Part shown: positions 11,341 through 32,130 of the stretch, piece after piece
Layout: every line of letters begins with the position of its first letter
Position numbering within the stretch: the first letter of the stretch is position 1
From: Candidatus Bathyarchaeia archaeon
GTDB lineage: Archaea; Thermoproteota; Bathyarchaeia; Bathyarchaeales; Bathycorpusculaceae
DNA length: 64,000 bases
NCBI GenBank assembly: GCA_049515895.1
Contig: JBEKTQ010000001.1
Coordinates: forward strand, 96,001 to 160,000
Reading direction: 5' to 3'
Program-made: the position numbers and the translations under genes
Notes under the pieces: model-generated
The model's input: the letters and a program-made list of their open reading frames with translations, nothing else
Told to the model about the DNA's origin: nothing
Database searches by the model: none

Positions 11341-12783
11341 TTATTCTGTGTGGACTCTGTAAAGGTCGATGTCTTCACGCATTGCTGGTGTTAGTTCAAG
11401 GAAATCTCTTACTGCCCGCACGATGTCTCTGCTCTGAGTGACGTATCTGCCGACGATTAGGATGTCTGCGTCCTGTTCTAAGGCTTCCTTAGCTGTTTCC
11501 GGCACGATTCCGCCTGCAACTGCAATGAGGAGTTTCTTGTTAGGGAAAGCTTGGCGTATCATTTTTATGCGTTCGAGTCCGCAGGTTCTGCCGCTTTCTT
11601 GGTCGATGCCTCTGTGAAGGATGACAATATCCGGTAAGTCCTTAAGCGATTTCAGCTTTCCGAGAACGTCTTCCACGTTTAGCATGTCGATGACCGCGTA
11701 GATTCCCATGCGTCTGGCTTCTGAAACGGTTGCGTCAAGGGTCTCTGGGGGTGCTAAGCCCGCTGCGACAACTGCGTCTGCCGTGTCTTCGTATGCGATG
11801 TCCACTTCAACCTTGCCTACATCAAGCGTTTTGAGGTCTGCAATTATAAATTTGTCTTTGGCTGCTTGCCGTAGCTCGCTGATCACTTTTGTGCCGTAGC
11901 GTTTGATCAGTGGGGTTCCGGCTTCAATGATGATTCTGTCGCTTCCCGGAAGTTGTTCAAGAACCTTCTTTGCCGCTTCAAGTGAGGGCGCGTCAAGTGC
12001 AATTTGTAGGTATGGTGGTCTCCACAGGCGTGGCACTTTGAAGCCCATTATCGGGTGCTTTGAACGGTCTTTTTCGTAGATGATCTTTTCGTACGACGGA
12101 TACTTCTTCAGTGCCCTCTGAAGCGCCATTTTCGTTGCGCCGTAATTGTACTGATAAATCCTTCTATAGTCGGCTGCTTGGGGATGAATAAAGACGCTGC
12201 AGATTATGACCCAATCGTCAAGATGCTCGCGGGGGATGATTCCCTCTTCAGTTGAATCCGCGATGGCTTTGGCAACCGCCGCTTGCGCGGGACCAAAAAT
12301 TTTTCCCGTGTCCTCCATGTTCTTCACGGTTACTTTGGGCACTATTAGCGTGTGGGGTTTAGGCGGCAAATTTGGCCTAATAACTGCCAGGAGTGGCGTG
12401 TGACCTGCGGAAAGGTTTGTCATCCCATTAGCGAATGCTTGGCCTACCGGGCCGTCCTTGTCGCCGATCATCAAGTCAATGTGCGCAACTTCGTTTCCTT
12501 CCCCGACCAGAGATTCGCCGATTAAGTAAGTACTTTCAGAATCTTCACCCGAGGCATCTGCAATGCCTGTCGGTATGCGGTCAACAATTTCCTTAAAATC
12601 GACATTAAACTCCTTTAACCAACTATAAAGTGTGTCTCTATGAATGTCCATCTCCTTAGCCGTTCCGACTATTGTCGGTTTTGTCGGCTTATTCTTTAGA
12701 TCAACCTCATTCTTTGCTGCTTCCGTCAACACTTTAACAAATTCTTCCCTAGTTTCTGGCTTTTTAGCATCTGTTCCCGACAT
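11341..12783 (-). CDS. fae-hps: bifunctional formaldehyde-activating enzyme / 3-hexulose-6-phosphate synthase with an extra N-terminal HTH-like domain
   Basis: Fae: [44 protein letters not shown]; Hps: [31 protein letters not shown]; about 85 extra N-terminal residues. Confidence 0.93.
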
Positions 12784-12820
12784 TTAATTTACCCTCAGGG
12801 CTCTCCTGTGTGCTATCTCG

Positions 12821-12896
12821 TATATAAAAATGTCGGATGCTTAGAAAAGTATTCGAGGTCGTCGGGGTAGTTTTGGCGTTTTGTTGTCGCTTAGAA
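12821..12896 (-). promoter_or_regulatory. TATA box of fae-hps with adjacent repeated TGTCG...GCTTAGAA elements
   Basis: TTTTTATATA on the minus strand (12821-12830); TGTCG at 12831 and 12885; GCTTAGAA at 12839 and 12889. Confidence 0.5.
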
Positions 12897-13001: not shown

Positions 13002-13205
13002 ATGTCTTGGACTGACTATGCGTGTTTAGGCGTATTCATATTTGGCTTTCTGCTGTTCATACTTGGAGCCAATATCTATAACGCTGTCATCGGTTACGCT
13101 GGTCTTTATCTTTCGATCGGCGCAATCATAGCTTACCTTGTCATATACATATACAAGGAATTCACTAAACAGCCTCCTACCCCTCCGACATCCCCGACCT
13201 CTTAA
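13002..13205 (+). CDS. small two-TM membrane protein
   Basis: 67 aa with two hydrophobic helices, GAGG upstream, Pro-rich tail. Confidence 0.7.
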   Translation: MSWTDYACLGVFIFGFLLFILGANIYNAVIGYAGLYLSIGAIIAYLVIYIYKEFTKQPPTPPTSPTS

Positions 13206-14728
13206 AAACCATAAATTGCGCCGTATTTCTCGTTCAAATACTTTGTAAAAGCCTCAGGATTTAAGCTTCTTCCGGTCGCTTTCTCAATTAGTTCTTCGGG
13301 CTCGTAGAGATTGCTTTGGCTGTGTATGTGTTTTTTCAGCCAGTCGTTAGGCTGGTTTAGCTTCCCAGTAACGAGTTGTTTTCGCCAATCAGGTATGTCT
13401 TTGGTGATTGCGGCTAATATTTGTCCGCTGTAAATGTTGCCAAGGGCGTAGCTTGGGAAATAACCGTACAGACCGCTTGCCCAATGGGTATCCTGCATTA
13501 CTCCCTCAGAATCATCCTGAACTTTAACCCCTAGATAATCAGCATATTTCTGGTTCCAAACTTCTGGAAGCTCGTTGACCGTGATTTTGCCGGCAAAAAG
13601 ATCTCTTTCAATTTCGAAGCGGACAATAATATGTAGGTTGTACGTTACCTCGTCGGCTTCAATGCGTATTTTCGACAACTGCACCCTGTTAATAGCCTTT
13701 ACAAACTTGTCTAATTCAAGGGTTGCAAGGCTGGGAGCTGTTTTTTTGAGGTTAGGCATTAAGCCTGTCCAGAATTCTTTTGAGCGGCCAACTACATTTT
13801 CGTAGAAGCGTGATTGTGATTCGTGTATGCCAAAGGAGCAGGGGGCGCCAATTGGCTGGTACTTCCATTTCGGGTTAAGGTTCTGCTCGTACCGCGCATG
13901 CCCACTTTCGTGAAGAACAGAAAAGATTGAGCTTGCAAAATTGTTCAGGTAGTAATGCGTAGTTATGCGAACGTCATCGTAGTAGCCTTCGGTAAAGGGA
14001 TGTTCTGTTTCATCAATTCTTCCGCGAGCCTCAGGCGAAAAGGTATCGTATCCTAAGGTTTGAGTTAAAAGCTGCGCGATTTTTCGTTGATTTTCGATTG
14101 GAACGGACTGGCAAAGTATCGTTGCGTCAGGCTTGCTTTTGCTGGACTGAATCTTACCCAAAAGCTGTTTTAAGCCGCCTTGAAGCTGGTTAAATGTTGA
14201 AGTAATCGCGTTCGCAGTCATTTTAGGTTCAAAATTGTCGATTAAAGCTTCGTACGGCGTTTTAGTTTCTTTCACTTTCATGAGGATTTCTGCCGCTTCC
14301 GTGCTCAAGTCCAGGAGCTTTTGCAAATTAGGCTTGAAAATGCTGAAGTCTTTTCGGGCTTTAGCTTTTTTCCAGACGTTCACCGTTATTGCTTCTTGCT
14401 TGGCAATTTCAGCCACCAATTTTTCTGGCAGGCTTGTTTGTTCTCTGTAGCTTTTGTTGATGAGGTAGATGTTTCGTTTTTCAGCTTGGCTCATCGATCC
14501 AAATTCGGGGCTTGCTTGTATGGAGGCTAATAGGTTCCCGATTTTCGGGTCGGTGCTCATCTGATGATGAATACGGGTTAACAGGGACAACTGATTGCTT
14601 CTTTGCTCAACTGCACCGGGCGGCATCATGGTTTCCATGTCCCAGTGGATTATACCCTCAGCGGTTACAAGGACTGTAATGTCCTCAATTTTTGATAACA
14701 ATTCTTTATAGTCACCAGAGATGTCCAT
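13202..14728 (-). CDS. carboxypeptidase, family M32
   Basis: HPFT, DVRITT, HESGHARYEQ (HEXXH), HESQS, IRIEADE, GVMQDTHW, GYFPSYALG. Confidence 0.96.
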   Translation of the reverse strand: MDISGDYKELLSKIEDITVLVTAEGIIHWDMETMMPPGAVEQRSNQLSLLTRIHHQMSTDPKIGNLLASIQASPEFGSMSQAEKRNIYLINKSYREQTSLPEKLVAEIAKQEAITVNVWKKAKARKDFSIFKPNLQKLLDLSTEAAEILMKVKETKTPYEALIDNFEPKMTANAITSTFNQLQGGLKQLLGKIQSSKSKPDATILCQSVPIENQRKIAQLLTQTLGYDTFSPEARGRIDETEHPFTEGYYDDVRITTHYYLNNFASSIFSVLHESGHARYEQNLNPKWKYQPIGAPCSFGIHESQSRFYENVVGRSKEFWTGLMPNLKKTAPSLATLELDKFVKAINRVQLSKIRIEADEVTYNLHIIVRFEIERDLFAGKITVNELPEVWNQKYADYLGVKVQDDSEGVMQDTHWASGLYGYFPSYALGNIYSGQILAAITKDIPDWRKQLVTGKLNQPNDWLKKHIHSQSNLYEPEELIEKATGRSLNPEAFTKYLNEKYGAIYGF

Positions 14729-31212: not shown

Positions 31213-32130
31213 CTAGCTTTCCAGAACAGCCCTCGCCAATCTAACCTTGTCTTCTAGACACTTCATTACGGTATCCGTCACTTTCACATCGATTCCGATC
31301 TGCTCAATCCGACCCTTTTCGTCGCCGTCTTTAACGTCAATCACAAATGTGTCAAGAAAATCCGCGTAAAGCTTCGCAACCGAAAAAGCTGAAACCTCAA
31401 AGCCGAAGCTACGCAGAAGTTTGTCGGCGGGACCTTTGATGGGGGCGCCGTCAACTATAGGGCTAACTCCGACAATCTTTGCGCTTGTCTTTCTCAATGC
31501 ATCTCTGATGCCGTCAACAGACAGTATGGTGCCTATGCTAACTATTGGATTGCTGGGGCAAATCACAATCATTTCCGCGTTCAAGATTGAATCGACGGTT
31601 TCAGGCACGGGTTTCGCTTTTGCTGAGCCGACAAACTCAACGCCTAAAACCTTGTCTTTCGCTTGTCTCTTCACGAAATACTCTTCAAAATGAATTAGGC
31701 CCTCCTCGGTTCTTATCCAAGTCTCAAACTTATCATCTGTCATAGGCATGATGTTTGCTTTGATTCCCAAGCATCGGCAAGTTTCTTCGGTAACCTTCGA
31801 AAGAGTAAACCCCTTGTGTAACAAATCCGTTCTAAAAATGTGCGTGGCAAAATCTCTGTCGCCTATACTGAACCATGTTTCTAAACCCATTTTCTTGAGC
31901 GTTTCGAGGCATTGGAAAGTGTCGCCTTTTATCCCCCAACCTTTCTCCTCGTCAACAACGCCCGCTAAGGTGTATGACACGATGTCGATGTCTGGCGAAA
32001 TGTGTAGACCGAACATTTCCATGTCGTCGCCAGTGTTGACAATCACAGACAAATCTTCTTCTTTCACTAGCTTAGTTAGGCCTGTTAGAAATCTTGCTGC
32101 TCCAACCCCGCCAGCTAAAGCTGTAATCAA
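31213..32130 (-). CDS. cofD: 2-phospho-L-lactate transferase (F420 biosynthesis)
   Basis: LAGGVGAARF, VNTGDD, ISPDID, GDRDFATH, HFEEYFV, PSNPIVSIG, KGPADK. Confidence 0.95.
   Translation of the reverse strand: MITALAGGVGAARFLTGLTKLVKEEDLSVIVNTGDDMEMFGLHISPDIDIVSYTLAGVVDEEKGWGIKGDTFQCLETLKKMGLETWFSIGDRDFATHIFRTDLLHKGFTLSKVTEETCRCLGIKANIMPMTDDKFETWIRTEEGLIHFEEYFVKRQAKDKVLGVEFVGSAKAKPVPETVDSILNAEMIVICPSNPIVSIGTILSVDGIRDALRKTSAKIVGVSPIVDGAPIKGPADKLLRSFGFEVSAFSVAKLYADFLDTFVIDVKDGDEKGRIEQIGIDVKVTDTVMKCLEDKVRLARAVLES

Follow-up and report, generated by a model that had tools for sequence, protein, structure and literature searches.

Why should an enzyme of formaldehyde and pentose metabolism begin with a segment that resembles a DNA-binding domain, and what would that segment bind? 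The question is raised by one gene in a stretch of 64,000 nucleotides from Candidatus Bathyarchaeia archaeon (GenBank assembly GCA_049515895.1, contig JBEKTQ010000001.1, positions 96,001 to 160,000), hereafter the window. The gene encodes formaldehyde-activating enzyme fused to hexulose-6-phosphate synthase (Fae-Hps), preceded by a predicted helix-turn-helix (HTH) head. A six-base word, CCGACA, recurs at its promoter, its start codon and the codons of the head. An earlier note, made from the sequence alone, had proposed that the enzyme also binds DNA. We consider it probable that the protein is an autoregulating enzyme-repressor fusion, with the head of Fae-Hps acting on the array of boxes in its own gene.

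Domain structure of the extended Fae-Hps

We first consider the protein itself (coordinates in Table 1). The genome (3.18 Mb in 53 contigs) has a single Fae and a single copy of the N-terminal segment, both in this open reading frame. The Fae domain is complete. The PF08714 match spans profile positions 1 to 159 of 159, far above the Pfam cut-off of 27 bits, and the solved Fae relatives 1Y5Y and 1Y60 (10 chains over 2 entries) match with an E value of 8.1e-44. Residues A100, H101, D103 and L104 are invariant among 61 aligned sequences, and AHIDL is present; we take the AH(I/V)DL segment to be the defining active-site motif of Fae. The Hps domain resembles solved hexulose-6-phosphate synthases (9lj9, E value 2.4e-28; 3f4w, 2.9e-20; 3ajx, 3.5e-20). 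Judged from conservation, both Fae and Hps appear catalytically intact, as the earlier note had read them. The fusion is predicted to connect formaldehyde capture dependent on tetrahydromethanopterin (H4MPT) with pentose supply and the ribulose monophosphate route. A Fae-like domain also occurs at residues 127 to 286 of PDB entry 8ub7 chain B (E value 2.7e-43), a 290-residue protein named "Avd" that is represented by 9 entries and 45 chains.

Fae starts at Y86, with 85 extra residues before it, in agreement with the length that the note had given for this extension. Read directly, the sequence has no in-frame ATG, GTG or TTG from M45 to L104, so a start that would yield a Fae of normal length is unavailable. 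In an alignment of 21 sequences with identity down to 39%, residues P36, T37, A42, H48, R49, D50, T51, L52, W55, F59, V61 and F63 are invariant. Synonymous codons at these and neighboring positions vary freely among 96 to 104 orthologues (D50, GAC in 50 and GAT in 46; Y53, TAC in 55 and TAT in 40; F59, TTT in 55 and TTC in 40). Residues held while their codons are free are what selection on a translated protein leaves behind. This pattern indicates that the extension is translated and conserved, under strong purifying selection.

The 25-residue string in which the note had seen an HTH lies at residues 37 to 61. AlphaFold2 models of the whole protein and of the head alone gave a predicted local distance difference test score (pLDDT) of about 71 to 87 over residues 11 to 70. 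The models show the layout of a tri-helical HTH, in which a short turn separates helices 2 and 3. Helix 3 (residues 49 to 58), the putative recognition helix, carries the invariant HRDTLxxW and is nearly invariant as a whole. Past the head comes the linker that the note had called acidic, and it proved to be acidic, variable and low in pLDDT. The HTH fold that the note had proposed is thus predicted, but its assignment to the Fis type did not hold. HTH_8 (PF02954, the Fis type) is absent from the Pfam matches at E values up to 10, both for the whole protein and for residues 1 to 90. Fis chains reach Foldseek E values of only 2.4 to 2.6, and the HTH of the response regulator 3rqi gives a profile E value of only 1.2, which is not significant. 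The best matches are of transposase and terminase-small-subunit types, all centered on residues 31 to 76 and all below cut-off: GP3_package (22.4 bits; cut-off 29.4), HTH_29 (19.6; 28.1), HTH_28 (19.3; 25) and HTH_23 (16.1; 24.6). Since no Pfam HTH family scores above its cut-off, we assigned the head to no named family; it is predicted to be a tri-helical HTH, and "Fis-like" is too specific.

Relatives outside Fae-Hps point the same way. An exhaustive phmmer search with residues 1 to 87 against 1.84 billion representatives returned 43 matches; among those listed, the ones that are not Fae-Hps fragments are tandem-HTH proteins. The latter include proteins of three to six tandem repeats (E values 3.5e-10 to 5e-4), and most of the tandem-repeat relatives scanned far exceed the cut-off for HTH_23, HTH_28 or HTH_Tnp_1. 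In both fold searches, nearly all rows shown are DNA-binding HTHs (AraC, TetR N-domains, sigma region 4, Fis/NtrC, small terminase and TnsD), and VIA-align places TetR N-domains and sigma region 4 at Z 5 to 6. A profile built from the N-terminal alignment had no significant match in the Protein Data Bank (best 2ao9, E value 0.14).

A conserved word at the promoter and in the first codons

We define a box as CCGACA or its reverse complement TGTCGG, with positions given relative to the ATG on the gene strand. Orthologues were compared at 104 loci: the window, 23 loci from a genome search, and the best 80 of the 366 loci at which the extension was found in species-representative genomes. Box 1 is at its place in 100 of the 104 loci, and a TATA-like word at -48 to -34 is present in all of them, while the columns flanking box 1 show background conservation of 0.35 to 0.5. 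Among the best 80 of the 366 loci, CCGACA is followed by TATA, 50 to 54 nucleotides 5' of the ATG, in 78, and the remaining two have one mismatch. The TGTCG repeats that the note had seen beside the TATA box (CGACA on the gene strand) are real; they correspond to box 1 and two near-boxes. The note's other promoter element, GCTTAGAA (TTCTAAGC on the gene strand), does occur twice, as an 8-bp direct repeat at 12839-12846 and 12889-12896 on the minus strand, but it is found in only 1 of the 104 loci. It precedes box 1 and the near-box at -107 and looks like a local duplication of a box with its flank. In the orthologous loci, a TAAT word about 20 nucleotides 5' of box 1 (offsets -17 to -14) is kept in 0.6 to 0.8 of the 104, and an A-run lies about 36 nucleotides 5' of box 1.

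The array continues across the start codon into the gene (Table 1). Boxes 3 and 4 fall in the codons of KPTKPT, and box 5 in those of the linker. In families f4 and f5, further copies, inverted, lie near -83 and -125. Spacings between the main boxes (-53, +1, +105 and +210) are 53, 104 and 105 bp, near whole helical turns. This spacing fits binding on the same face of the DNA, to which we give little weight, since the geometry of the promoter and of the protein may equally set these distances.

Boxes are concentrated in the promoter and at the 5' end of the gene. On average, a locus has 4.78 boxes in -130 to +260, compared with 0.42 in the 1,180 bp from +260 to +1440 and 0.37 in -520 to -130; the genome-wide density is 0.41 per kb. 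The enrichment over the rest of the gene is about 12-fold. The codons beneath the boxes are unusual as well. S2 is TCG in 103 of the 104 loci, whereas TCG accounts for 9.4% of the other serine codons of these genes. At P36-T37, CCGACA is used in 99 of the 104 loci against 7.8% expected, and Pro-Thr dipeptides elsewhere in these genes are CCGACA in 1 case of 44. As a within-gene control, we ranked 118 conserved P, T, A, G, V and S columns by codon invariance in 98 full-length orthologues, which share a phylogeny (6 of the 104 loci were short or contained N and were left out). The three most invariant columns are S2 (0.99), T37 (0.98) and P36 (0.97); the next reaches 0.878 and the median is 0.58. 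V61, which lies under a near-box, ranks fifth. Two of the three top codons are otherwise rare. Selection thus acts on the DNA word itself.

Covariation of the boxes and the HTH head

The boxes are scarce where Fae-Hps has no head. In 15 HTH-less Fae-Hps loci (L030-L033, L114-L122, L126 and L130) we found zero or one box in the 450 bp before Fae, and CCGACA at the TATA box was seen in 0 of the 14 among them that were never seen with an HTH. Two loci of the window's own genus show loss within the lineage. G234 (locus L030, 85% identity) has lost the HTH through an in-frame deletion that joins MSGTEVKKPENR to ASGPTYLIGE, and both surviving box positions are mutated, to CCGGCA at -52 and to TCA at S2. 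The second copy in G190 (L133, on G190:C94) is strongly diverged: QLD replaces HRD, LT replaces PT, and its flanks are oddly rich in G+T. It has no boxes and lacks even the 5-mer core.

Two genomes that keep the HTH, G183 and G331, narrow down what is shared. They have only 5-mer cores, namely ACGACA abutting the TATA box and an inverted TGTCGT upstream. Because these promoter cores are kept where the intragenic boxes are missing, the promoter-proximal core is the universal part, with intragenic copies in most lineages but not all.

A search for further HTH losses in the order added none: the low-scoring genomes were contig-end fragments, frameshifted long-read assemblies and the pseudogene of G650, and the locus of G340, which contains a stretch of N, was left aside. 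G650 (same genus) has nothing more of fae-hps than a remnant on G650:C19 (L156/L161) with three in-frame stops (two TAG and one TAA). The different HTH of G029 offered a possible independent replicate, but a metagenome scan with its N terminus gave 4 loci, none of them Fae-Hps.

Specificity of the box in the genome

The combination of box and TATA box marks this gene alone. The only CCGACA-N4-T[AT][AT]ATA in the 3.18-Mb genome is the one at fae-hps. With relaxed spacing and TATA, there are 5 matches genome-wide, and only the fae-hps match lies at promoter distance from a plausible gene start. We considered whether CCGACA might be this lineage's generic transcription factor B recognition element (BRE) and rejected this, because the composite is unique and the usual pre-TATA hexamers are A-rich.

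At least two boxes in -130 to +30 were found for 3 of 2,929 crude genes, against about 6 by a rough Poisson estimate; the other two genes are an acetyl-CoA-synthetase-like gene and a gene of 144 amino acids. In the former (G000:C17:40503-42462, plus strand), CCGACA lies at -110 and the start codon reads into ATGTCGG, so that both boxes are placed as in some fae-hps loci; this is within genome-wide chance. Other genomic clusters of boxes lie in a Pro-Thr repeat gene, a P-type ATPase gene and one further region. The only other five-box cluster (G000:C24:5488-5698) belongs to the first of these, whose product looks secreted and contains a long Pro-Thr repeat; the cluster arises because CCG-ACA encodes Pro-Thr. 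Within the window, CCGACA occurs 40 times on both strands against 20.1 expected, a count that 0 of 100 shuffles reach; beyond the five fae-hps boxes, a trio lies at 31422-31633 in a gene that resembles CofD by eye.

The earlier note had suggested that the enzyme might autoregulate C1 genes. The autoregulatory half of that suggestion fits the operator-like array at the gene itself, which is lost with the HTH. The wider half found no support, as scans for boxes and for box-TATA composites gave no sign of a C1 regulon, or of any wider regulon, in this genome.

Distribution of the head

The note had called for a survey of the extension and of the upstream motifs. Of the motifs, CCGACA recurs as described above and GCTTAGAA does not; the extension is widespread in Bathyarchaeia, far more so than chance would give. 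Residues 1 to 90 match 731 proteins at E values up to 0.01, among 770 candidates of 264 to 840 amino acids. Among the 120 matches listed, most are about 480 amino acids and a few are shorter, and those with names are called bifunctional Fae/Hps. Nearly all of the best 80 of the 366 loci are titled Bathyarchaeota or Bathyarchaeia, and the few other organism labels among them are taken to be binning errors. The DNA of the stretch was detected in peat and wetland metagenomes; no RNA data set was listed for it.

Fae is encoded by 59 of the 301 genomes sampled from the phylum. In the window's family, 16 of 16 have the extension (one of them HTH-deleted), as do the sister families f4 and f5 and a single genome from a different order (G183); G029 has it in a divergent form. 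Other Fae-Hps of the class and phylum begin at about residue 84 of the query, that is, without the head. At the level of the order, a match was found in 325 of the 401 genomes sampled (f1, 236 of 247; f4, 24 of 25; f5, 55 of 60; f2, 0 of 47).

An apparent stand-alone head, an 89-amino-acid frame in G252, was rejected, as the frame is cut by a contig end. The short phmmer matches inspected were mostly fragments or frameshifted pieces, although P0139 and P0140 may stand alone. P0130, a metagenomic protein of 153 amino acids, has the same HTH head with another C-terminal segment (IFVIMPFDSTFDDVW...), which could mean a different fusion partner or a chimera made in assembly. Some relatives have a second Fae, about 50% identical, which is C-terminal in a 492-amino-acid protein of G216 (L138, 1757..3235, minus strand), whose N-terminal two thirds look, by eye, like a DapA/DHDPS-type aldolase. 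Matches to this second Fae also occur in G013, G109, G133, G141, G204, G228, G252, G264 and G270, with none in the window's genome.

A model for autoregulation and its alternatives

Taken together, the protein would consist of a tri-helical head of about 70 residues, a flexible acidic linker and an intact Fae-Hps in one chain, and the head most likely recognizes (C)CGACA. By analogy with archaeal repressors, the geometry of the boxes suggests negative autoregulation: binding at the BRE/TATA junction and at the start would exclude transcription factor B (TFB) and TATA-binding protein (TBP) or block RNA polymerase. We take the solved Fae homologue 1Y5Y to be a pentamer, with which the 10 chains in 2 entries agree. 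A pentamer with a linker of predicted flexibility would present several tethered heads, which could bind a number of boxes at the same time and in either orientation, each box being single and non-palindromic. The note had likewise imagined several HTHs displayed on an oligomer, and the homology to 1Y5Y lends support to this arrangement. We infer that the HTH itself, and not another factor, binds the boxes; negative control and multivalent binding are put forward on the same footing.

A more elaborate version is possible, though we hold it only tentatively and think it doubtful as a whole. The heads of the pentamer would wrap the first approximately 300 bp of their own gene, the operator words would be dual-coded in the start and Pro-Thr codons, and occupancy would be set by catalytic state, through formaldehyde, H4MPT or sugar phosphates. 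If so, the cell would sense its formaldehyde and pentose status directly through the enzyme. That the substrates modulate binding, as in a "trigger enzyme," is speculative.

Several observations weigh against an autoregulating fusion, and some of them favor a separate transcription factor that binds a real CCGACA operator, with the head serving in protein-protein contact or nucleoid tethering. All matches to named Pfam HTH families are below cut-off (13.6 to 22.4 bits against 24.6 to 29.4), Foldseek with the head model found nothing at E values up to 0.001 (best 0.77), and the best VIA-align hit (AraC-type 3mkl, Z 6.6) is under the level trusted for helical models. Residues 1 to 70 are not basic, with about 13 K/R and 14 D/E, and an acidic linker follows them. 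In G183 and G331 the HTH is kept, but neither an exact hexamer nor intragenic boxes are present, and L026 has an intact HTH and yet CCGGCA at -52. A second 300-bp segment of the genome with as many boxes lies inside the Pro-Thr repeat gene. Because the loci are related, common descent accounts for part of the association between HTH and boxes, and the two may have been co-inherited within one order; decisive natural experiments number only two, the G234 deletion and the L133 paralogue. However, the boxes have decayed at precisely the loci that lost or degraded the HTH (L030 and L133), they are written in the HTH-coding codons themselves, and the putative recognition helix is nearly invariant. 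The box-TATA composite is unique to fae-hps, so the separate factor would have to be dedicated to one gene. We therefore regard a separate factor as unlikely.

Two further explanations have less to recommend them. The words could form an mRNA device, in which UGUCGG at the start codon pairs with one of the CCGACA words at +96, +105 or +210, masking the start and giving translational or stability control. The words are exact reverse complements, one-to-several pairing would also freeze the sequence, and the minimum-free-energy fold of -17 to +240 does pair the start UGUCGG with the CCGACA at +210 (z -2.33; 6 of 200 shuffles as good), a further point against a DNA operator. We nevertheless find this improbable. 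The best-conserved box (100 of 104) lies 5' of the TATA word (104 of 104, about 46 nucleotides before the ATG) and so is most likely untranscribed from this promoter, although read-through from the carboxypeptidase-like gene upstream could in principle place it in an RNA. Extra copies occur at -82, -105 and -125 in either orientation, G183 and G331 retain promoter copies only, a 6-bp helix closing loops of 90 to 200 nucleotides is weak, and complementarity stops at the hexamers. It is more improbable still, to the point that we give it very little credence, that the extension has no part in regulation, being a leftover from a mobile-element HTH that is neutral or structural, and that the repeated word comes from composition and shared ancestry. 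Its top Pfam matches are indeed phage terminase and transposase HTHs, and one genome (G234) lives without the head. Against this stand strong purifying selection on the domain across 366 loci, rare codons fixed at box positions relative to the 118-column control, and the roughly 12-fold enrichment. An enzyme that represses its own gene through the head thus remains our preferred explanation.

Features of the locus

The coordinates of the features are collected in Table 1. Two genes lie 5' of fae-hps. A divergent open reading frame at 13002..13205 (plus strand) encodes 67 hydrophobic amino acids, and a gene resembling M32 (Taq-type) carboxypeptidases at 13202..14728 (minus strand) is on the same strand as fae-hps and also lies beside it in L007, L008 and L012.

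Table 1. Features of the fae-hps locus, in window coordinates; positions in the first column are relative to the ATG on the gene strand
Feature	Coordinates	Strand	Details
HTH-Fae-Hps gene	11341..12783	-	Open reading frame of 480 amino acids plus stop
N-terminal domain, residues 1-70	12574..12783	-	Predicted helices 12-29, 38-44, 49-58 and 63-69 (AlphaFold2)
Variable acidic linker, residues 71-85	12529..12573	-	pLDDT below 50 at residues 72-82; variable in alignment
Fae domain, residues 88-246	12046..12522	-	PF08714, 240.5 bits; 1Y5Y, E value 8.1e-44
Hps domain (OMPdecase/HUMPS, PF00215), residues 257-460	11404..12015	-	121.3 bits (cut-off 27)
Near-box GCGACA, -107	12885..12890	-	Exact box in -112 to -92 at 21 other loci
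Near-box CCGACG, -82	12860..12865	-	Exact box at -82 in L035, L036, L040 and L048
Box 1, CCGACA, -53	12831..12836	-	Overlaps the BRE position, just 5' of the TATA box
TATA box, TTTATATA	12821..12828	-	Promoter on gene strand: TCCGACA-TT-TTTATATA
Shine-Dalgarno-like GAGGGT	12791..12796	-	7 nucleotides 5' of the ATG; GAGG kept there in orthologous leaders
Box 2, inverted (TGTCGG on gene strand)	12777..12782	+	Overlaps the start codon, ATG TCG GGA; 101 of 104 loci
Box 3, CCGACA, +96	12682..12687	-	Codons P33-T34; CCGACA in 62 of 63 loci with PT here
Box 4, CCGACA, +105	12673..12678	-	Codons P36-T37; CCGACA in 99 of 104 loci
Near-box TGTCGA (gene strand), +179	12599..12604	-	Codons V61-D62; V61 is GTC in 0.857 of orthologues
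Box 5, CCGACA, +210	12568..12573	-	Linker codons P71-T72; CCGACA in 79 of 83 loci with PT here

Relation to known enzyme-regulators

Bathyarchaeia are abundant and almost wholly uncultured, and gene regulation in them is nearly unstudied. Annotation names proteins of this kind only "bifunctional Fae/Hps," so the regulatory head is currently invisible. The locus offers a defined pair of protein and DNA (a head of 85 residues and a word of 6 bp), and the enzyme concerned is central to pentose and formaldehyde metabolism in hundreds of species-level genomes. Two of the marks of the trigger-enzyme class seem to be present: an enzyme and a predicted DNA-binding domain in one chain, and a specific, conserved candidate operator.

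The classical trigger enzymes PutA, BirA and NadR are bacterial. In each, a single polypeptide holds both the enzyme and the domain that binds DNA, the arrangement proposed here, and their autoregulation is tied to catalytic state. They differ in fold (ribbon-helix-helix in PutA, winged HTH in BirA) and have palindromic operators outside the coding region, and none of the three is known to be a formaldehyde or pentose enzyme. Control of hexulose-phosphate synthase transcription has its own precedent in HxlR of Bacillus subtilis, which regulates the hps-phi operon in response to formaldehyde; HxlR, however, is a separate MarR-like protein that is not fused to the enzyme. The Fae-Hps of methanogens, for which a role in ribose-5-phosphate biosynthesis has reportedly been proposed (Goenrich et al. 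2005, Arch Microbiol 184:41), has the same two domains but begins directly with Fae, as do the other sampled Fae-Hps of Bathyarchaeia and the phylum. In the literature searches made, no title pointed to an earlier account of an HTH-Fae-Hps fusion.

The clearest archaeal precedent for an enzyme-regulator fusion is RbkR, described as a riboflavin kinase and regulator that binds DNA through an HTH-type domain at its N terminus (Rodionova et al. 2017, PMC5397151). Like the protein studied here, RbkR is an archaeal metabolic enzyme with an N-terminal HTH, and its own gene is given among the operators predicted by comparative genomics (PMC5397151). It differs in having a winged HTH on a riboflavin kinase, a regulon of several genes, and binding described as responsive to cytidine triphosphate and flavin mononucleotide (PMC5397151). 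Here, in contrast, a short tri-helical HTH is predicted on Fae-Hps, and the candidate operator appears to be confined to its own gene and reaches into the coding sequence. If the head does bind the boxes, this would be the second well-supported archaeal enzyme-regulator fusion after RbkR, and an unusually clear case of operator words kept in coding sequence by means of rare codons. Enzyme-regulator fusions are known; what is new is a predicted HTH on Fae-Hps together with a candidate operator array, part of which is carried by the start codon and by the codons that encode the putative DNA-binding domain.

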